Of a stretch of DNA of 64,000 nucleotides, positions 16,908 through 57,187 are shown one piece after another; the stretch's first letter is position 1, and each line of letters opens with the position of its first letter. Below the pieces are notes generated by a model. The model searched no databases and was not told the origin of the DNA. It saw only the letters and a program-made list of their open reading frames with translations. The translations under genes and the position numbers were made by a program. The stretch comes from Gammaproteobacteria bacterium (GTDB lineage Bacteria; Pseudomonadota; Gammaproteobacteria; UBA1113): contig CBDDKW010000024.1 of the NCBI GenBank assembly GCA_965230425.1, forward strand, positions 141,727 to 205,726, written 5' to 3'.

Positions 16908-19900
16908 ATGAGGATAATAACAGTGGCAAAGCATCTTCCTGCAGTGATTGCTGCAATTAAATCGACCTATGAAAATAATAAAGAAGTTATTGAAAGTAAT
17001 GAAAATACCAGTGAACTTATCCAGCTACTCGAACAAGACTCACCTCAATTTATTGATATTGTTCGCCATCTCTATGCGCTGCGCAACCAAACCACAAATG
17101 CTACTATTACAAAACTCACAAGAATCATTTTTTGTGCAGGTCATAAATATCCTTTGTCGTACCTAGCTAAACCAGAAGCTTCATTAAATCAATATGAACT
17201 ACAGCAGATTGAACAAAGTTATCAATTATTTGAAGCATGTGGAAACCAGGATAACAAATTTGAGACGCTACTAGTATTCATACTTAGTCTGTACAACATC
17301 GATGATTGTCAAATCGTCACAATGGACCAAACGGCAGAAAATACTCAAAAATTCCAGCAAGGTATTATCAAGATACTTCGGCTAGCCAATACCCCTGCTA
17401 GCAGAGATCATGAAGATAAAAATGAATATTCTTATCTATTGCGAATTATGATTTATGCTGATGCTACTGCAACTATTGATTTCCTAGATTGTTTTTGTAA
17501 AAAAGACGGATGTTACCAAACCACGGTCGAACAATTTTTTCAAAATGAGCGCATCATAGAGCCATTATGCACAGAATTTTTAAGTCAATTCAAAAGTATC
17601 ACCTCAAAACATGGCCGTTTATTACTGGCGAAACATCAACTATTGAGCCAGCTACACAGTATTCAGAATATAGAAGTTGATGAACCCTTTGCTGACATAT
17701 TCGCTCAATGCTCCGGCTATCAGATTAAGCAAGCAATAGCTAACATACAAAATCATCCTGCTTCAAACAGGAACACAGAACTATTATCTGCAATCATTGC
17801 ACGTTACCAATCACTTTGGCCTGAAAATGCCAACCCTATTCTTGAGAACAATGTAGATAATCTAGCGTTGCTTGTACGTTATTTCTATCTAATAGATGTT
17901 GTATTTAATCCTATACGCAACTTTATGAACTTCACTGCCCCTATTCCGAACACATTACCAGCAGATAAAACATCAACAGTTAGCCAGGTACTCTGTCTGC
18001 ATAATATGGATTGCCCAGTTACTCGTGCACCTTTACTGCTAACTGAAGATACTCCGCTAGTAACTGAGCGTAAATACATAAAGACCGCACAAACATATGT
18101 TATTACAGCCATAGACGTCATCGAAGAATTGATACAAATCATGGATAGCTTAAACGCAAAGATACAGTTACAAAATCAACTCTTGAAAAAATGCATAGAT
18201 TATTTTCACGCACTATTAGATGCCATACGATGGAATGATGGAAGTACATCACAAGAAACTTATGAAGGTTATATTCGTAATCTTCTGGAAGCAATGATGC
18301 CCTTATTAAAATCGAATAAGACACAAGAGCTTGCCACTGATCATTCTGAATTACCTAGCGATGCACTTAAAACTATCTATAAATCTTTAGTCAGCAAGCT
18401 ACCGCTAATGCAGTTGACTAGTCCATTTATAGACAATTTAGTAAATATATTCGACTGTTATCAAGATTTAACCATTTGGTCATTGCTTAAGAAATTTAAA
18501 CAGAATGAAACAAGATCAGATACTGTTCAAAAATTATTAGCGCATTTGAAGGTATCACCCAACTCAACGCCGCAGATGCAAGTTAATTATGCACAAGTGC
18601 TTTATCATGCGCATAAATATCACAGTTACGTACTCACACGAGATGACCTTAGCCAGATACTTATTTTTTGTCCTGAGCTTAGACAACAACTACGAGATGA
18701 CTTTAAAGATGATAGCAAGCAAACAGGCCGCTTAGTCTATTTGTCTTATATGATACAGACCTTTTATGGTGAGGATCTTGAAGCAGATACTGAATTTAAA
18801 GAAATAGCAGATGCACTTAGTAAACAAACAACCCTGGCAGCAAAATACTATGGACAACACCGCCCCACATTATTCAAATTAACTCAGCGCAGTACTTTCT
18901 TAAGCTTCGTCGGAAAACAGCAATTAGCAGATGAGAAATTTAGTGATGTCGATAATATTCAGACATTCCGTCAAATGATGTTGGATGTGCTACGCGAAGA
19001 TATTCCTCTCAGTGCCGAGCTCATAAGCTACGATCTTGTGAGTGAGTGCCCAACTGGTAGAGAACGCACACCAACAGACTTTATGACTCGTGAATTCTTA
19101 GGAGAGACTGCATCAACAACCATGCTATGGGCCTTGGTTATTATGCGTCATTACGCACTAGAAGATGAAAACCCAGATAATGAATTTATTCAAGCCTGTG
19201 AACATAACATCGTTGCATTATTGCATGAAAGTATGGCTACTCGCTTTAAACCATCACCCTATATGGACCTCCCAGGCTATTTAGATGCCCATTTAGCCGA
19301 GTGCTTAGTAAACCTATCTGACAATGAACGTGCTCATATCCCTAATACAGAGGAACTCATCACTGGCCATTATCAACGTGCATTTACGCGAGGTTATCAG
19401 ACGAGGCAGCTTGCTAATCCCGCTCACTTTCCTCGCTATATCGATGTGCTAACAAAAGAAGTCTCACTATCACACTGGCAGATGCTGCAGGCCCTGTTTG
19501 CAGAATGTATACGCGCTGACGAACAAGCTAGCTTTGACAATGAAATATATGCCAAATTAATTATTTATTATAATACCTTAAGGAGCCAACACCCCCAGCA
19601 TCAACGCTTGCATGATATTGAAGCTCAGCTAGATCAGCTAGGCGCCGCACCTTATCAAACATCAGAAAGCTCGGCTCCCCTTGGTCATTGTCGCCTCAGA
19701 TTTTATTTGGCATTGATTTGCATGAATATCTATTGCGATACAATTTTAGATGAAATACTGGCTATACGAACAATCACAGATGAAACACAACAACGAGTTA
19801 TCTTAATTGATATACTGCAGCAATTAGTTGAAAACTATGAACGGTTTAACTTTGATGCGACCAAAGTATCTCAATCACTCGGCAAACTTTTTAAGGCTAT

Positions 19901-37896: not shown

Positions 37897-38703
37897 ATGA
37901 AATATAGTAATTCAACAGATTTTGCTCGCAAAGGACTTGGTAAAACACAGGCAAGACACTACTCTAGCTTGCTCAGAAATACTAATGGCACCATAACTGT
38001 CAGTGAAGCAGCTAAAATTTTACGCCAAACTAATAGCAAAACTTCTATGTTTCTGTCATTACTGGTAAAGAAAGGTTGGTTAAAACGTATTGGATATGGT
38101 GTTTACATTCCAATTCCGATTGAGTCTTCTACAACAGAGTATATAGCTAATGAACCATTTCTTATCGTAAATGAACTATTCTCACCTTGCTATATAGCCG
38201 GTATGAATGCAGCTAATTATTGGGGGTTAACCGACCAATTGTTTCGAACAACAACGGTCATGACTCAAAAACTTATTAGAGATCGTAATCCAATAATTGC
38301 GGGGAATGAATATAAAATACATACTATTAACTCGCGATATTTCTATGGGCTTAAATCAACTTGGATAGACTCCGTAAGAATAAAAATTTCAGATCCGACT
38401 CGCACGCTTGTGGATATGGGTATTTTTCCTCAATTTTGTGGTGGTATTCGATTTATAGAAGATGTCCTGATAGCGTATTGGCAGTCTGAACTTAAAGATC
38501 TCCAACTCTTGATGCAATATTTGGAGCAATCAGAAAATGGTACAGCCTTTAAACGTATTGGCTACCTTACAGAAAAGCTTTTTCCAGATGAAAAAAAATT
38601 TATTCAGTTCTGTCAAAATAATTTAACACAAGGTTATTCAAAAATCGAACCATCTATCCAACAAACTAAATTAAGTACCAGATGGCGATTATGGATAGCT
38701 TAA
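37897..38703 (+). CDS. AbiEi-type antitoxin (type IV TA / abortive infection), winged-helix N-terminus
   Basis: ITVSEAAKILRQTNSKTSMFLSLLVKKGWLKRIGYGVYIPIP is an AbiEi_4-like wHTH with the R.G.Y motif. It lies immediately upstream of the AbiEii gene. Confidence 0.7.
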   Translation: MKYSNSTDFARKGLGKTQARHYSSLLRNTNGTITVSEAAKILRQTNSKTSMFLSLLVKKGWLKRIGYGVYIPIPIESSTTEYIANEPFLIVNELFSPCYIAGMNAANYWGLTDQLFRTTTVMTQKLIRDRNPIIAGNEYKIHTINSRYFYGLKSTWIDSVRIKISDPTRTLVDMGIFPQFCGGIRFIEDVLIAYWQSELKDLQLLMQYLEQSENGTAFKRIGYLTEKLFPDEKKFIQFCQNNLTQGYSKIEPSIQQTKLSTRWRLWIA

Positions 38704-38723
38704 ATTATAAATAGTGGTGCATT

Positions 38724-39587
38724 ATGATCAAAAAAAATGAAATTCAAAGAGTAGCACAGGCTTTCTCATTACCTCAGAACTCCATTGAAAAAGATTATAT
38801 TCTCAGTTGGCTTTTAGCTGGTATCTATAACAGACATGCGTTAAAAAACCAATGGGTTTTTAAAGGAGGTACTTGTATAAAAAAATGTTTCATCGAAACT
38901 TACCGATTTTCAGAAGATCTTGATTTTACTATCTTAGATCCTAAACAGATTGACACCTCATTTTTACAGTCTGAATTTCAAGCCATTAGTGAGTGGATAT
39001 ACGAACACTCAGGCATTGAAGTGCCATTCCATGAAGTAAAATTTGAAAAATACATTAATCCTAGAGCACAAGAATCTATTGAAGGTAAAGTTCCATATAA
39101 AGGGCCTCTGCAGAGACGAGGCAACAATCCTAATGTTAAATTAAATTTAACATTTGATGAAATCCTCGTTACTCCTCCAAAACCCACACCAATTTTGCAT
39201 CACTACACTGATAGTGAAGATTTTGATAATCTAAAAGCACTATCATATTGCCTCGACGAATTATTTGCAGAAAAAATGAGAGCTTTTATTGAACGCACTC
39301 GTCCGCGTGATTTATTTGATATTATCAGCATATTTTCACATGATGAACTTGTACTAAATAAAGGTAACGTACAATCTATCTTCATCAAAAAGTGCCAGCA
39401 TAAAGGTATAAAAAATATCAAAACTGAGCTACTCAATACAGAACTTAAAAAAAATGAGCTTTTTAGTGACTGGGAATATATGTTGTCACATCAGATAGCT
39501 AATTTACCACCTTGCGAAAACTATTGGAGTAAAATACCCTCTTTATTTGGCTGGCTAACAGATGGATTAAATGATGACACTACGTAG
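38724..39587 (+). CDS. AbiEii/AbiGii family nucleotidyltransferase toxin (DUF1814)
   Basis: Has motif I (FKGGTCIKKCF), motif II (YRFSEDLDFTI) and motif III (ELFAEKMRAF), all characteristic of AbiEii NTases. Confidence 0.8.
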   Translation: MIKKNEIQRVAQAFSLPQNSIEKDYILSWLLAGIYNRHALKNQWVFKGGTCIKKCFIETYRFSEDLDFTILDPKQIDTSFLQSEFQAISEWIYEHSGIEVPFHEVKFEKYINPRAQESIEGKVPYKGPLQRRGNNPNVKLNLTFDEILVTPPKPTPILHHYTDSEDFDNLKALSYCLDELFAEKMRAFIERTRPRDLFDIISIFSHDELVLNKGNVQSIFIKKCQHKGIKNIKTELLNTELKKNELFSDWEYMLSHQIANLPPCENYWSKIPSLFGWLTDGLNDDTT

Positions 39588-39616: not shown

Positions 39617-39671
39617 ATTACTTCTGGATTACTTCTGGATTACTTCTGGATTACTTCTGGATTACTTCTGG
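39617..39671. repeat. Perfect tandem repeat (attacttctgg)x5 with an 11-bp unit, directly downstream of the AbiEii gene
   Basis: Five identical head-to-tail copies plus a partial sixth (att). Confidence 0.95.
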
Positions 39672-39760
39672 ATTTAACTATTAACAGTCTACCAAACCGG
39701 AGCTTAAGCCTAATTTCGCACATAGTAAATTGCTCGTGTAGCGAAAAATCATGGGCAATT

Positions 39761-41875
39761 TCAGCCTATCATGCCATACTGTTCCTTACTACCCAACCAA
39801 CGCTCAACAATACACTCTGCTGCTTGTGGTTGCTGTGCTAATAACTCTTGGGCTACGCGCTGTACTTTAGGTAACAAGCGTTGATCACGCACAATATTAG
39901 CAATGCGCATATGGATGTTACCTGTCTGGCGGGTACCTAGGACTTCACCAGGGCCGCGTAACTCTAAATCACGCTGAGCGATTTTAAAACCATCATTGGT
40001 TTCACGTAAAATACCTAAGCGTGACTTTGCCATTTGTGATAAGGGCAATTGGTATAACAGCACGCAATGACTTTCCACTGAGCCACGGCCAACACGCCCA
40101 CGTAGTTGATGTAACTGTGCCAGACCTAGGCGTTCTGGGTTTTCAATAATCATTAAACTGGCATTGGGTACATCCACCCCTACTTCGATCACAGTGGTTG
40201 CAACCAGTAAATCCGTCTCGCCAGCTTGGAAGCTTGCCATAATGGCTTCTTTTTCTGCTGGTTTTAGGCGTCCATGAATTAAAGCAACTTTTAAGGCAGG
40301 TAATTGCTCTTGTAAGTCTGCTGCTGTGGCTTCTGCGGCTTGGCATTGTAAAACTTCAGATTCTTCAATCAGCGTACACACCCAATAGGCTTGACGTTTT
40401 TGTTCGCAGGCTTGGCGTACTCGCTGGATCACTTCACCGCGCTTTTCATTGGAGATAGCAACAGTCGTCACTGGTGTGCGCCCTGGCGGTAATTCATCAA
40501 TCACTGAGGTATCTAAATCCGCATAAGCAGTCATGGCCAGTGTACGAGGGATCGGCGTAGCCGTCATAATTAACTGATGAGGATGGATGCTGGCTTGCTC
40601 ACCTTTTTCTTTTAAAGCTAAGCGCTGATGCACGCCAAAACGATGTTGCTCATCAATCACGACTAAAACAAGATCAGCAAATTCCACATCCTTTTGGAAC
40701 AAAGCATGTGTGCCTACAACCACTTTCACTTCTCCTGCAGCGATTTGCGCTAAAATGGGCTTGCGTTGTTTAGCGGTCATTTTACCAGATAACCAAGCAA
40801 CTTTAATATCTAGCTCTGCCAGCCAGCGTTCAAAGGTTTTAAAGTGTTGTTCCGCTAATAATTCAGTAGGTGCCATTAACACTGCTTGCTTACCTTGCTC
40901 TATGGCTTGCAACATGCTCATGGCGGCAACAACCGTCTTACCCGATCCTACGTCGCCTTGCACTAAACGTAGCATGGGTGAAGCTTGGGCAAGATCCGTG
41001 GCTATTTCGTCGACCACACGCCCTTGAGCTGCGGTTAACTTAAATGGTAAAGAGGCGAGAAACTTCTCTTGTAAGCTACCTTGGCCCGTTAACGCACATG
41101 CCTGTTGATGTTTTACCCTATCGCGCAAGCGTCGTAAGCTAATTTGATGCGCAACTAATTCTTCAAAGGCTAAGCGCTGTTGCATGGGATGGATGCCTTC
41201 GAGTAGCTGCTCTTGATTAGCATCGGGTGGTGGGCAATGTACATATTCCACCGCTGCTGCCAGCGGTGCCAGATCATATTGTTCCAGCAAGACCTGGGGA
41301 AAATGTTCTTGTAACACCGCGCCATTTTTTAAAAACTGTAATGCCTGATCAGCTAACTGGCGTAATGAGTGCTGTGATAACCCTTCCGTCGTTGGATAAA
41401 TAGGCGTGAGGGTTTCGGCCACAGGCATAATTTTATCAGCATCAACGAAACGGTATTCTGGGTGTATCATTTCAAATCGACTGGCACCACGGCGCACTTC
41501 ACCAAAACAACGAATACGCCGACCTACCTTTAAATTATCGCGTTGCGCTCCGCTAAAATGAAAAAAGCGTAAACCTAAACGCCAACCTTTTTCTTGGATA
41601 GTACAATAAAGACTCATTTTGCGGCCACGCTTGGTTTCCGTACTAAGAATTTCCCCCTCGACCACGACAAATTCACCGAGCTGTACATCAGCCATGGGGG
41701 TGACTCGGGTACGATCTTGATAACGTAGAGGCAAATGAAATAACAAATCTTGTACAGTATGTAGATCACGTTTAGCCAATTGTTCGGTGAGCTTGGCACC
41801 CACGCCACGCAAAACCGAGACGGGCATCTTATCCAGAGATTGTTGTGCTGCTGTCGACAGGGTTGGTTTGGCCAT
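39761..41875 (-). CDS. recG: ATP-dependent DNA helicase RecG
   Basis: 704 aa with a wedge domain plus SF2 helicase motifs (GDVGSGKT, VIDEQHRFGV, QLRGRVGRG). Confidence 0.95.
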   Translation of the reverse strand: MAKPTLSTAAQQSLDKMPVSVLRGVGAKLTEQLAKRDLHTVQDLLFHLPLRYQDRTRVTPMADVQLGEFVVVEGEILSTETKRGRKMSLYCTIQEKGWRLGLRFFHFSGAQRDNLKVGRRIRCFGEVRRGASRFEMIHPEYRFVDADKIMPVAETLTPIYPTTEGLSQHSLRQLADQALQFLKNGAVLQEHFPQVLLEQYDLAPLAAAVEYVHCPPPDANQEQLLEGIHPMQQRLAFEELVAHQISLRRLRDRVKHQQACALTGQGSLQEKFLASLPFKLTAAQGRVVDEIATDLAQASPMLRLVQGDVGSGKTVVAAMSMLQAIEQGKQAVLMAPTELLAEQHFKTFERWLAELDIKVAWLSGKMTAKQRKPILAQIAAGEVKVVVGTHALFQKDVEFADLVLVVIDEQHRFGVHQRLALKEKGEQASIHPHQLIMTATPIPRTLAMTAYADLDTSVIDELPPGRTPVTTVAISNEKRGEVIQRVRQACEQKRQAYWVCTLIEESEVLQCQAAEATAADLQEQLPALKVALIHGRLKPAEKEAIMASFQAGETDLLVATTVIEVGVDVPNASLMIIENPERLGLAQLHQLRGRVGRGSVESHCVLLYQLPLSQMAKSRLGILRETNDGFKIAQRDLELRGPGEVLGTRQTGNIHMRIANIVRDQRLLPKVQRVAQELLAQQPQAAECIVERWLGSKEQYGMIG

Positions 41876-52663: not shown

Positions 52664-52891
52664 AAATCCATACCTCACTGTAGTAAAAAACCACTAAAAC
52701 TTGATATTTTGGGGTGGCGTCAGTATATCTGAAAAATATTCAGCCGTCGCCTATCTTATGCACAAAAAAATATTGCATTAATTGATATAACAATTATAAT
52801 TCTGTGATATATTCTGATTGATTACAAAATAATGTGAAAAAATATAGCGCATAATTGATAAATGCTTGCTAAACTCAACAGTAAGGATAGA

Positions 52892-54025
52892 ATGATGGCA
52901 TCAGCAATAGACACGCTCACTATCACAAATGAATTGAAACAAGGTGGCTTCGATCAGCGTCAAGCTGAAGTACAAGCTAAGATATACTTAAATATTATGC
53001 ACTACTTAATATCTGACCAAATAGCAAACAAAGACGATGTGAAACATATCGAAAATACGTTTAAAGACGATGCAAAACACATCGAAATCATGTTTAAAAA
53101 TGATATCAATGCCCTACGTAAGAACAATGAAGAAAGCATACGCCAGCAATTTAAGCAACAAAATCTCATCTTCCAAAGTCAATTGCAAAGCTTTAGCACT
53201 GAATTTCAAGGCCAACTAAAAAGCCTTAGCAGCGAAGTTGATGCTAAAATCGCTAAACTTGATAGCAAAATCACAAATCTCGTCGTCCAATCTGAAACTA
53301 AACTCGATACAAAACTCGACGGCATCAACAACAAGATGGATGAGGGGTTTACTGATACCAACAACAAAACGGATAAGAAACTTACAGACACCAACAATAA
53401 AATGGATGAGAAATTTACTGCATTCAACAGCGAGATGGATAAGAGATTTGCTGAAGTTCACAGCAAAATGGATAAAAAATTCGTCGAAATCGACAATAAA
53501 TTCATCCAGCTTGAAAAGAAAATGGATGAGAAATTTACTGCCTTCAACAACGAGATGGATAAGAGATTTGCTGAAGTTCACAGCAAAATGGATAAAAAAT
53601 TCGTCGAAATCGACAATAGATTCATCCGGCTTGAAAAGAAAATGGATGAGAAATTTACTGCCTTCAACAACGAGATGGATAAGAGATTTGCTGAAGTTCA
53701 CAGCAAAATGGATAAGGGATTTGCTGAGGTTCATGGCAGAATGGATAAAAAATTCGCCGAAATCGACAATAGATTCATCCGGCTTGAAAGCAAAATGGAT
53801 AAAAAGTTCGCCGAAATCGATAAGAAATTCGCCCAAATCGATGATCACTTCATCAAGATTAACACACAGATTTCACAACTTACCACACAGATCTCACAAC
53901 TAGGTGAAAAAATTGTCCAACAAGAAATGAATATTTATCGCAAATTAATCAAATTCACATTTTGCTGCATCACAGCCGTCACCGGCATAAGTGGCACCAT
54001 CGGTTATCTGCTTCACAGCTTATAA
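52892..54025 (+). CDS. Coiled-coil protein with a DUF1640/XhlA-like N-terminus, tandem 40-aa repeats and a C-terminal transmembrane anchor
   Basis: The N-terminus (AIDTLTITNELKQGGFDQRQAEVQAKIYL) resembles DUF1640. The repeats have the form KMDEKFTAFNNEMDKRFAEVHSKMDKKFVEIDNRFIRLEK. The C-terminal hydrophobic segment is FTFCCITAVTGISGTIGYLL. Confidence 0.7.
   Translation: MMASAIDTLTITNELKQGGFDQRQAEVQAKIYLNIMHYLISDQIANKDDVKHIENTFKDDAKHIEIMFKNDINALRKNNEESIRQQFKQQNLIFQSQLQSFSTEFQGQLKSLSSEVDAKIAKLDSKITNLVVQSETKLDTKLDGINNKMDEGFTDTNNKTDKKLTDTNNKMDEKFTAFNSEMDKRFAEVHSKMDKKFVEIDNKFIQLEKKMDEKFTAFNNEMDKRFAEVHSKMDKKFVEIDNRFIRLEKKMDEKFTAFNNEMDKRFAEVHSKMDKGFAEVHGRMDKKFAEIDNRFIRLESKMDKKFAEIDKKFAQIDDHFIKINTQISQLTTQISQLGEKIVQQEMNIYRKLIKFTFCCITAVTGISGTIGYLLHSL
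53332..53860. repeat. Intragenic tandem repeat with a 120-bp period: two perfect-register copies at 53401-53520 and 53521-53640, a third partial copy, and flanking degenerate 33-bp sub-repeats
   Basis: The copies at 53401-53520 and 53521-53640 differ at only a few positions. The third copy keeps about 75 nt and then diverges. Confidence 0.9.
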
Positions 54026-54147
54026 ACCGTCACTGAAGCATTATGTATTCCTTGTTTGAACTAACCAACAGGTGGAGATTTCCTGCTGTAATGATACGAC
54101 TAAGGGAGAGTAGACGCTCCCCCCTAGAAATTCTCAATCATGCAAGC

Positions 54148-55383
54148 TTATCCTCCCTGCATGGGCTGCATCTCATGACCTGTTCTGCTATCACCTTCTA
54201 CCCTGACTTCCATTAACGGAGTTTGCTCATGTGCTGGGGTTTCTTGTGGGGTTTCTTGGCTACGTTCAGTGCGAAGCTTCTGCAACGCAAATAATAACTC
54301 ATTGGATAATTGCTGTGGCCCGGGTGCTTGAGGTTTAATATTTTCGTAACCATAATGCAGGGCATTGGCAGCAGCTACCGCTGCAAATAATGCAGAAAAC
54401 ATCAAAATTTTCGGATGCTCTGGATCTAAATCAATATGGCCATCATAAGCGCCATCAATTAATAATGGCCCAAAGGGTGCCCCAAACTGAAAAGCTGTAA
54501 ATATTAACATTAAAATCACATGGCCGGCTTGTTTGATATATCCCTTTGGATTTTTCTGCAAACCCACATAGACATTTTGCAAATACTTATGCATATCTTC
54601 TTCAGTTAAGTCTTGTAAATACTCAAATTCTTTTTGTGGTTCCGCAACATTAAGTTGCTGTAATAGCTCAATGGCTTTACCTTCATAATCACGCTGGTAA
54701 ATACGCTGTAAAATATAGTTAGCCGCGTTTTCAGCACTGACGCCCGCTTGCCTTAGTGCAAAATAGGCATTTGCATCACTCATGGTATCTAAGCCATCAA
54801 TTTCAGCATCACCCAGCAGTACAGCCATACTTTCCTGATTAGGTGAATTCTTGAAAACCTCATGCACTAAAGCATCTGCTCGAGTATCTGCATCCTCTGT
54901 AAATAAGTCCCCCTTGACAAAATCCAGAAAATTTCGCCCCTGTAGCGCGGCAACAGCCTTTTGTTGCATCAGTAATAAATTATACGCCCCCGCCGATGTC
55001 AAACCATTACCATGCAAAAACTCATATGCCATCTCTGGCTCACTCATTAATTCTTGCATAATCGTCACCACTGACGCTTGCATCTCCTTTTGCACCTGTT
55101 GCGCAGCAAAGGCATTTTCTTTACGAAAAATAAAATCCCTAATTAACTTAATCGTAATTACAAATACACCCACAGCAATAGTAGATGTCGATCCGATCAG
55201 CCCATAATCATCCACTACTTCAGAAATACGGAAAAAAGACCCAACGGTAAAAACTAAGCCAGTCACACCACCGACAAAGCCCAAAGACTCACGCACTGCA
55301 TCTAAAATATTACGTAACCACACTTTGACTTTATTATTTTCTGTACCTGCCATGGAAGACTCCTCGTTATTATTATTGAACAC
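54148..55383 (-). CDS. Hypothetical membrane protein (411 aa) with a Pro/Gln/Glu-rich C-terminal tail
   Basis: Has two TM hairpins (residues about 30-80 and about 285-345). The tail is PQAPGPQQ...SQETPQETPAHEQTP. No known domain is recognised. Confidence 0.65.
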   Translation of the reverse strand: MFNNNNEESSMAGTENNKVKVWLRNILDAVRESLGFVGGVTGLVFTVGSFFRISEVVDDYGLIGSTSTIAVGVFVITIKLIRDFIFRKENAFAAQQVQKEMQASVVTIMQELMSEPEMAYEFLHGNGLTSAGAYNLLLMQQKAVAALQGRNFLDFVKGDLFTEDADTRADALVHEVFKNSPNQESMAVLLGDAEIDGLDTMSDANAYFALRQAGVSAENAANYILQRIYQRDYEGKAIELLQQLNVAEPQKEFEYLQDLTEEDMHKYLQNVYVGLQKNPKGYIKQAGHVILMLIFTAFQFGAPFGPLLIDGAYDGHIDLDPEHPKILMFSALFAAVAAANALHYGYENIKPQAPGPQQLSNELLFALQKLRTERSQETPQETPAHEQTPLMEVRVEGDSRTGHEMQPMQGG

Positions 55384-55507
55384 TCACAAAGGAGCGGCGA
55401 TTGTACCCACAAATACTTAAGATTGCCTTAAGAATTTGTTAAAAAATTGCTTTTATCACATAAATTGGGTAATTTAGCGGCATTTCAAGTTGGCATAAGG
55501 CAAAGTA

Positions 55508-57187
55508 ATGGCACAATATATATACACCATGAACAGAGTAAGCAAGCTCGTTCCACCGAAGCGCTTCATTCTCAAGGATATTACCCTCTCTTTCTTCCCA
55601 GGCGCTAAAATCGGCGTCCTAGGTTTAAATGGTGCCGGAAAATCCACACTCCTTAAGATTATGGCGCAAATTGACCAAGATATTGATGGTGAAGCACGCC
55701 CCATGGCAGGCATTAATATTGGTTATCTCGCTCAAGAACCTCAACTTGACCCTGCCAAAGATGTACGTGGTAATGTGGAAGACGGTGTGGCCGCAACCAA
55801 GCAATTACTCAAGGATTTCGACGAATTAAGCATGAAATTTGCCGAACCTATGAGCGACGATGAAATGAACAGCCTATTAGAACAACAAGCTGACCTACAG
55901 AATAAAATCGACGCAGTGAATGGTTGGGAACTGGATCGACATCTGGATATTGCTGCTGATGCCTTGAGATTACCCCCCTGGGATGCCGATGTCACCAAAC
56001 TCTCTGGCGGTGAACGTCGCCGCGTAGCACTCTGCCGTTTGCTGTTATCAAAACCCGATATGCTATTACTTGACGAACCTACCAACCACTTAGACGCAGA
56101 AAGTGTCGCTTGGCTTGAACGTTTCTTACATGAATATTCCGGTACAGTCATCGCCGTAACCCACGATCGCTATTTCCTCGATAATGTAGCAGGCTGGATA
56201 TTGGAATTAGATCGCGGCCAGGGGATCCCCTATGAAGGTAACTACACCGCCTGGTTAGAACAAAAAGAAAAACGCTTAGTCATTGAAGAAAAACAAGAAC
56301 AAGCTCACCAAAAAACTCTCAAATCAGAATTAGAATGGGTACGTTCTGGAGTCAAGGGCCGCCATGCGAAAAGTAAGGCACGTTTAGCTCGTTTTGAAGA
56401 ATTAAACACGAAAGAATTCCAAAAACGTAATGAAACCCAAGAAATTTATATTCCACCAGGCCAGCGTTTAGGCGACTTAGTCATAGAAGCCAACAATATC
56501 AGTAAGCATTTTGGCGACAAGCTATTATTTGAAAATCTCAGCTTTAATATTCCTAAAGCCGCCATCGTCGGTGTCATTGGTGCTAATGGTGCCGGTAAAT
56601 CCACTTTATTTAAGATGCTAAGCGGACAGGAACAACCAGATAGTGGTGAAATCCGCATTGGTGAAACCGTACAACTTTCCTATATTGACCAAAGCCGCGA
56701 TCACTTAAATGGTGAGAAAACTGTATGGGAAGAAGTATCCGATGGCTTAGATTTAATTACTGTAGGTAATTATGAAACACCATCACGCGCTTATATTGGC
56801 CGATTTAACTTCAAAGGCAGCGACCAACAAAAATTGGTCAAAGACTTATCTGGTGGTGAGCGTAACCGCTTACATTTGGCTAAGCTGTTAAAAACAGGTG
56901 GTAACGTCCTATTACTAGACGAACCTACCAATGATTTAGACGTAGAAACCTTGCGCGCACTAGAGGAAGCAATTCTTAACTTCCCTGGTTGTGTGATTGT
57001 GATTTCCCATGATCGCTGGTTCTTAGATCGTATTGCCACACATATTTTGGCCTACGAAGATGACAGTCACGTAGAATGGTTCCCAGGTAATTACTCAGAC
57101 TACGAGGAAGATCGACGTAAGCGCCTCGGTACGGATGCTTTGAACCCACACCGTGTGAAGTATAAGAAAATTACCAATGACTCATGA
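55508..57187 (+). CDS. ettA: Energy-dependent translational throttle protein EttA (ABC-F ATPase)
   Basis: [25 protein letters not shown] is the EttA N-terminus. Two ABC cassettes carry Walker A/B and LSGGE motifs. Confidence 0.95.

Follow-up and report, generated by a model that had tools for sequence, protein, structure and literature searches.

A predicted DUF1640/CCDC90-like membrane protein with an unusually long, recently duplicated coiled-coil stalk

DUF1640 proteins are integral membrane proteins of prokaryotes and mitochondria, in which a β-layer with the consensus [aliphatic]-A-T-K-[polar]-[DE] opens the stalk (Hartmann et al., eLife 2016, PMC4786415). β-layers have been described in trimers (PMC4786415). 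In the mitochondrial inner membrane the family is represented by human MCUR1 and CCDC90B and by yeast Put6 and Put7. According to a review of the structural work on MCUR1, the protein is made up of head, neck, stalk and membrane anchor, with the head binding the partner and the length of the stalk reported to matter (PMC8224590). The structures of MCUR1 and CCDC90B are those of Adlakha et al. (Structure 2019, as cited in PMC7519068), and the yeast homologues face the matrix (PMC7519068), the topological equivalent of the bacterial cytoplasm. Here we describe a gene at positions 52892..54025 (+) of a 64,000-nt stretch of gammaproteobacterial DNA (assembly GCA_965230425.1, contig CBDDKW010000024.1, positions 141,727 to 205,726; the whole stretch is called the window below). 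Its product, the target, is probably an unusually long DUF1640/CCDC90-like protein with a head, a β-layer neck and a recently lengthened coiled-coil stalk, which would act as a trimeric, cytoplasmic, tail-anchored spacer or scaffold.

The target shares four features with the prokaryotic DUF1640/CCDC90-like proteins (PF07798; PDB 6H9L; PMC4786415): an N-terminal head of the type xFDTLxxxxxLxxxGFxxxQAE; a β-layer neck where the stalk begins; a coiled-coil stalk with many MDxRFxxVD-type 11-residue repeats; and a single C-terminal membrane anchor without a signal peptide. It differs from them in its neck, IANKDD, where N replaces T, in a Pfam score below the gathering cut-off, in a very recent 3 × 40-residue duplication within the stalk and in the length of that stalk. 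At about 305 residues, it has no equal in the 23 head-bearing proteins compared: the stalks of the 22 relatives, which were drawn from the best 150 of 1318 phmmer matches, measure 36–224 residues. A preliminary description of the sequence had called the architecture unusual. Head, neck, 11-residue-repeat stalk and anchor are instead the plan on which the family is generally built (PMC4786415; PMC8224590), the relatives share stalk expansions, and length alone stands out.

The mitochondrial proteins (PDB 6H9M) follow the same head–neck–stalk–anchor plan and, like the predicted target, have their bulk on the matrix or cytoplasmic side. They differ in carrying targeting sequences and in binding MCU or serving proline and nitrogen metabolism, whereas bacteria are without an MCU complex. 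The sequence similarity of the mitochondrial proteins to the target is confined to the head and is visible only through a family profile.

Family assignment

Several sequence comparisons lead us to conclude that the target belongs to the DUF1640/CCDC90-like family, that of mitochondrial MCUR1 and CCDC90B, although the curated Pfam threshold is not reached. First, PF07798 (CCDC90-like, formerly DUF1640) matches the N-terminus of the target from profile position 1 (positions 1–82), with 17.4–22.1 bits and E-values of 4e-3 to 1.5e-4. The matched region contains the predicted head domain, residues 1–43 (52892..53020, +; residues are counted from the ATG at 52892), in which two helices, 8–17 and 22–43, carry the motif xIDTLxxxxxLKxxGFxxxQAE. 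In AlphaFold2 (AF2) models, the head region has a predicted local distance difference test (pLDDT) score of 86–96.

Second, the relatives retrieved through the stalk can be used to interrogate the head. A phmmer search of 1.84 billion representatives at E ≤ 1e-3 returned the 1318 matches, all of them via the stalk. Among the best 150, about 21 are small proteins of 134–309 residues with the head xFDTLxxxxxLxxxGFxxxQAE, an ATK neck, MDxRF 11-residue repeats and a C-terminal hydrophobic anchor. We built a head hidden Markov model (HMM) from 22 such stalk-retrieved, head-bearing relatives, leaving the target out. This model matches target residues 1–51 with 36.7 bits (bias 0.1, independent E-value 1e-10), the sole significant match among the 523 open reading frames (ORFs) of the window. 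PF07798 in turn matches 19 of the 22 sequences of the head alignment (E ≤ 0.01; best E 2e-12), and the family-alignment profile matches the head of human CCDC90B (PDB 6H9M) with an E-value of 1e-5. The DUF1640-like N-terminus proposed in the preliminary description is thereby borne out.

Third, the neck follows the head where the family would have it. Residues 44–49 (53021..53038, +) read I-A-N-K-D-D, which agrees with the published DUF1640 consensus at five of six positions (PMC4786415), and both AF2 models break the helix at residues 44–46, coinciding with this motif. Immediately downstream, at 53030..53098 (+), lie two 33-bp repeats encoding KDDVKHIENTF and KDDAKHIEIMF, then KNDINALRKNN (period 33, 2.1 copies, 83% matches in Tandem Repeats Finder (TRF)). 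These may be further degenerate β-layer or hendecad units. It is this same stretch with which the target alone, in a phmmer search, matches the repeated ATKEDIEALRK units of PDB 6H9L (E 7e-4). The entries 6H9L and 6H9M contain 3 chains each.

The best stalk matches also include DUF3782/PD-(D/E)XK nucleases (for example P0006, P0012, P0016 and P0017), which have an N-terminal β-layer and hendecad coiled coils, share the MDxRF type of 11-residue repeat with the target and are tied to DUF1640 by the common ATK β-layer motif (PMC4786415). Unlike the target, they are without a DUF1640 head and end in a nuclease domain instead of a membrane anchor.

Other searches returned little. A word-indexed search of 5.8 billion proteins gave one weak stalk match for the full protein and none for the head alone. 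Neither the target, with two alternative starts, nor NrdR nor the identical GlyA is on record as an exact sequence, and scans of genome, viral and metagenome contigs gave no relative of the target.

The stalk

The stalk, residues 47–351 (53030..53944, +), can be written without a gap as 22 hendecads and 9 heptads, an unbroken 11/7 register over 305 residues that contains zero proline and zero tryptophan. The 11-residue KMDxxFxEIDx sub-units noticed earlier are plain in this register: within the 22 hendecads, strongly hydrophobic residues fill three of the 11 positions (in 91%, 86% and 77% of cases) and reach no more than 18% at the others. Over the whole stalk, hydrophobic periodicity peaks at 3.65 residues with a power of 7.6, compared with a shuffle maximum of 1.1 ± 0.2; within the duplicated part described below, the peak lies at 3.64, that is, 40/11. 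A period of 3.64–3.65 marks a coiled coil of the hendecad type with next to no supercoil (background in PMC4786415). A fully helical stalk, rising 0.15 nm with each residue, would measure about 45 nm.

The full-length AF2 model (mean pLDDT 78.5, compared with 83 for the head fragment) is helical throughout, with helices at residues 47–150 and 161–376. Between them, residues 151–160 (53342-53371, GFTDTNNKTD) have a pLDDT of about 38 and no helix; T, N and G residues accumulate here, and T stands instead of M at a core position. In the model, this stretch may represent a hinge in the stalk, or else an artefact of a monomer model folding back on itself.

An 11/3 periodicity is also typical of the amphipathic helices of apolipoproteins, perilipins and phasins, which lie flat on a lipid or granule surface and form no coiled-coil rod. 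The top Pfam match of the target is of this kind, PF01442 (Apolipoprotein A1/A4/E), with an E-value of 1.3e-12. Its 48.3 bits, however, are far under the PF01442 cut-off of 90, and the match reflects the shared 11-residue periodicity. The hydrophobic residues at three of 11 positions form a narrow seam of the coiled-coil type, with neither a broad hydrophobic face nor proline-punctuated 22-mers, and the trimer-specific β-layer neck and the head place the target in DUF1640. We therefore consider it very improbable that the repeats are lipid-surface helices.

Tandem duplication within the stalk

TRF detects a 120-bp period at 53399-53715 (2.6 copies, 97% matches, score 606), with 33-bp periods nested within 53325-53748. 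Direct comparison resolves the array into three complete units, after which a degenerate partial unit follows. Each 40-residue unit of 120 bp consists of three 11-residue repeats and one 7-residue repeat. Unit 1 (KMDEKFTAFNSEMDKRFAEVHSKMDKKFVEIDNKFIQLEK; 53399..53518, +) is identical to unit 2 (53519..53638, +) at 116 of 120 positions, and the four differences comprise one synonymous and three conservative changes (S/N, K/R and Q/R). Unit 3 (53639..53791, +) is longer, at 153 bp or 51 residues, and corresponds to unit 2 with a 33-bp insertion of one hendecad. Removal of 53716..53748 (+) gives the best fit, with 117 of 120 positions then identical to unit 2. The register table places the degenerate partial unit, KMDKKFAEIDKKFAQIDDHFIKI, at 53792..53860 (+), from where it leads into six C-terminal heptads, and TRF finds 21-bp periods at 53793-53842 and 53859-53901.

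The preliminary description had spoken of perfect 120-bp tandem repeats in its title and of about three near-identical copies in its text; the latter is right, and only the word 'perfect' slightly overstates the case. Recent tandem duplication of a 40-residue module (three hendecads and a heptad) produced part of the stalk, and a single hendecad was duplicated later. No other long-period tandem arrays occur in the 64-kb window. The stalks of relatives hold near-exact tandem duplications too, including exact runs of 34–35 residues at periods 11, 18 and 33 and a 24-residue run at period 51. Because such duplications are common among the relatives, their sequences suggest that tandem stalk expansion is a habit of the family and not peculiar to this gene.

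An array of this kind could also arise in assembly, by collapse or false expansion, in which case the true length of the gene would differ. The source appears to be a draft contig, and identical stretches of as much as 87 bp, the longest exact repeat in the array, recur between units. We judge such an artefact unlikely, because the units are individually marked, by 3–4 substitutions each and by the 33-bp insertion, and because the reading frame and the coiled-coil register are intact throughout. Additionally, ordinary reads are longer than the 87-bp exact repeat, and arrays of the same kind occur in the relatives.

The repeat leaves traces in other frames and on the other strand. Two overlapping ORFs, 53216-53848 (-) and 53238-53903 (+), are open just because the repeat has no stop codons in those frames, and we treat them as shadows of the repeat and not as genes. 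On the minus strand, 53447-53769 contains six terminator-like matches compared with 1.0 expected, with two hairpin-plus-T-run motifs recurring in each 120-bp unit. These matches are an echo of the repeat and not independent signals.

Membrane anchor and topology

The predicted C-terminal anchor, residues 352–377 (LIKFTFCCITAVTGISGTIGYLLHSL; 53945..54022, +), comes directly after R/K/K and ends the protein without an extramembrane tail. It is the sole hydrophobic segment of the protein, is helical in the AF2 model and stands at a position equivalent to that of the relatives' anchors. Its Kyte–Doolittle 19-residue mean of 1.58 is borderline, and the relatives range from 1.07 to 2.71 at the same place. 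Both the C-terminal anchor and the long membrane-anchored rod of the preliminary description thus agree with the predicted anchor and the 305-residue stalk that it follows.

The same description had placed the rod at the surface. No N-terminal signal peptide is found in the target, the N-terminus of which, MMASAIDTLTITNELKQ, is not hydrophobic, and the sole hydrophobic segment lies at the extreme C-terminus. Judged from these features and by analogy with the family, a cell-surface rod is unlikely. A trimeric autotransporter adhesin was also considered and rejected: in addition to the non-hydrophobic N-terminus, the YadA model gives an E-value of only 0.31 and the C-terminus is a single helix with no β-barrel anchor.

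Two other types of membrane protein resemble the target in outline. The cytoplasmic tail of ZorA, from the Zorya defence system, is likewise a long membrane-anchored cytoplasmic helical rod. The target differs from ZorA in being without a MotA/ExbB channel domain (no Pfam match; one hydrophobic segment) and without ZorB–D neighbours. PADLOC gives just weak matches to its ZorA models (E about 1e-6), in coiled-coil segments only, and membership of a defence system was rejected.

The second type is XhlA (PF10779) of Bacillus phages and prophages, to which the protein had been likened at the outset, with the suggestion of a phage-derived, lysis-associated membrane protein working with a holin and an endolysin. 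XhlA proteins are some 70–90 residues long, a short coiled coil and then a C-terminal hydrophobic helix, without head or neck, and what they share with the target is gross shape alone. Some PHROG families of unknown function do match the target (phrog_6701, E 2e-17, in the stalk; phrog_17872, E 1.5e-8, residues 12–142), and DUF1640 proteins have been reported from prophage regions (PMC5291501). By contrast, PF10779 is absent from hmmscan results for the whole protein (E ≤ 1) and even for its C-terminal 67 residues (E ≤ 10). A tblastn search of 50,697 phage records gave no match, and the scan of viral contigs gave no relative. Nor is there a lysis cassette at the locus, where the neighbours are housekeeping genes and no integrase, holin, endolysin or structural phage gene lies nearby. 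The XhlA and phage-lysis reading is largely refuted, and we give it hardly any credence.

Gene structure and genomic neighbourhood

The coding sequence comprises 377 codons and a stop, as supported by the ORF list, by the alignment of the head profile from Met1 and by the AF2 model. The open frame spans 52862-54025 (+), with an in-frame ATG at 52862 upstream of the ATG at 52892. We prefer the start at 52892 because a Shine–Dalgarno sequence, AAGGA (52883..52887, +), lies 4 nt before it and because the family head profile aligns from exactly this methionine. In the divergent spacer between glyA and the target, a consensus scan yields a candidate σ70-like promoter, GTGATA-18-AATAAT (52804..52833, +), with 9 of 12 matches; the candidate is weak, because the number of promoter-like sites in the scan is not above shuffle expectation. 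A terminator downstream of the gene finds no support (fold z-score 0.18). The G+C content of the gene is 0.368, compared with a mean of 0.415 (s.d. 0.032), and G+C at third codon positions is high. The low overall value is unusable as evidence of transfer, as the K/D/N/F-rich repeats explain the composition.

The neighbourhood of the target is chromosomal housekeeping, with pgpA, thiL, nusB, nrdR and glyA upstream and ettA, an OmpA-like lipoprotein gene, an Rrf2-type regulator gene (iscR) and sufBCD downstream. The target shares the glyA–ettA gap, here 2829 bp, with a convergent gene at 54148..55383 (-), which encodes an orphan membrane protein of 411 residues with hydrophobic segments near residues 33–86 and 289–344. 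No family in Pfam, NCBIfam or PADLOC matches this neighbour, and metagenome contigs contain no relative of it. We compared the gap with those of 11 gammaproteobacterial loci that contain both genes (L002, L005, L006, L009, L010, L012, L014, L059, L060, L062 and L080). In these, glyA and ettA are divergent neighbours, separated by less than 500 bp in 6 of the 11 and by 835–2988 bp in the rest. Across distant gammaproteobacteria, the spacer ranges from 156 to 2988 bp; the corresponding interval of the window is 52678-55508. The site appears to accept lineage-specific genes repeatedly. As the gap varies among loci and the 411-residue orphan has no detectable relatives, the comparison suggests that the target and the orphan are a lineage-specific filling of a variable spot.

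The source organism is a lone lineage without a close relative in the collections searched. Its closest relatives reach at most 57% identity in NusB (tblastn best segment) and, apart from one identical record, at most 79% in GlyA; in the GlyA relative at 79% identity, synteny differs.

These circumstances bear on a different role, that of a host-targeted effector or secreted tail-anchored protein, exported for example by a type IV system, whose C-terminal helix would sit in a host membrane with the rod as a tether. In its favour, the target and the orphan membrane protein fill a 2829-bp insertion between genes that lie directly side by side, in divergent orientation, in 6 of 11 other gammaproteobacterial loci, the window contains other large orphan ORFs (740 and 1721 residues, with no Pfam family), and the lineage is a lone one, with its best GlyA relative at 79% identity. 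However, the window contains no secretion-system gene, no effector family is matched in NCBIfam, and a hydrophobic extreme C-terminus is unlike known C-terminal translocation signals. The family, moreover, is widespread in bacteria and archaea as small membrane proteins (PMC4786415). An effector role is, in our estimate, improbable.

Other features of the window

The two large ORFs lie at 7501-9723 (+) and 16908-22073 (+), encode 740 and 1721 residues and have no Pfam family at E ≤ 1e-5; the region is otherwise housekeeping. At the window start, 1-212 (-) is the 5′ end of a bacterial 16S ribosomal RNA gene (model positions 1–217), cut by the window boundary, and tyrS adjoins at 484-1689 (-).

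A gene pair at 37897-39587 (+) has a low G+C content (0.33–0.35, compared with 0.41 for the window). Its second gene encodes an AbiEii-type nucleotidyltransferase toxin (PF08843, E 1e-31). The first, for which no family was found, probably encodes the cognate antitoxin, and the pair looks like an acquired type IV toxin–antitoxin module. The spacer that separates the AbiEii gene from recG (39761-41875, -) holds a perfect 11-bp tandem repeat, ATTACTTCTGG, in 5.3 copies at 39617-39674.

Discussion

We propose that the target would work as follows. It would form a parallel homotrimer, given that β-layers are trimer-specific and that each of the two solved family structures contains three chains. 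A tail anchor would fix it in the inner membrane and leave head and stalk in the cytoplasm, as suggested by the absence of a signal peptide, by a sole anchor at the C-terminus with positive charges before it and by the matrix-facing yeast homologues. The protein would act as a rigid spacer or scaffold that keeps a partner-binding head about 45 nm off the membrane, a role for which the analogy is with MCUR1 and CCDC90B. Recombination or slippage between units could change the length of the stalk in frame. As the 40-residue module equals 11 helical turns (40/11 = 3.64, the natural period of the helix), the gain or loss of a module would change the reach by about 6 nm and keep both the core register and the orientation of the head.

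Several points weigh against this proposal. The PF07798 score of 17–22 bits is below the gathering cut-off of 33.5; relatives of the same subgroup also fall below it (P0021, 31.0 bits; P0043, 25.5 bits). The phmmer stalk matches include plainly unrelated repeat proteins, for example one of 7009 residues, so that stalk similarity alone is no proof of homology. Foldseek searches that used the monomer model of the head gave no significant match in the PDB or BFVD. The neck departs from the family consensus by N in place of T, the predicted anchor is just borderline hydrophobic (Kyte–Doolittle mean 1.58), and the low-confidence stretch at residues 151–160 could make the stalk a hinged instead of a rigid rod. 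The trimeric state, the topology and the binding of a partner are predictions from sequence and from analogy with the mitochondrial members of the family.

A bolder form of the idea is that the stalk is a length-tunable molecular ruler, in which 40-residue modules set the reach of the head in steps of about 6 nm. In this isolated and possibly host-associated lineage, the target and the adjacent orphan membrane protein might together serve as a tether peculiar to the lineage, or as an exported effector with a tail anchor, and not as a housekeeping scaffold. We regard this as a long shot.

On present evidence, the target is a new, unusually long member of a known family and is not XhlA-like, phage-derived or surface-exposed. 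It is best annotated as a membrane-anchored coiled-coil protein of the DUF1640 family and should be called neither a hemolysin nor a lysis factor; in other respects the result is one of ordinary annotation. DUF1640 proteins are common in bacteria, where they have no known function; MCUR1 and CCDC90B, their relatives in mitochondria, have medical relevance and are still under debate. Against this background, a very long and freshly duplicated natural stalk shows how stalk length evolves, by in-register duplication of whole 11-turn modules, and the target could be a test case for stalk length setting function.

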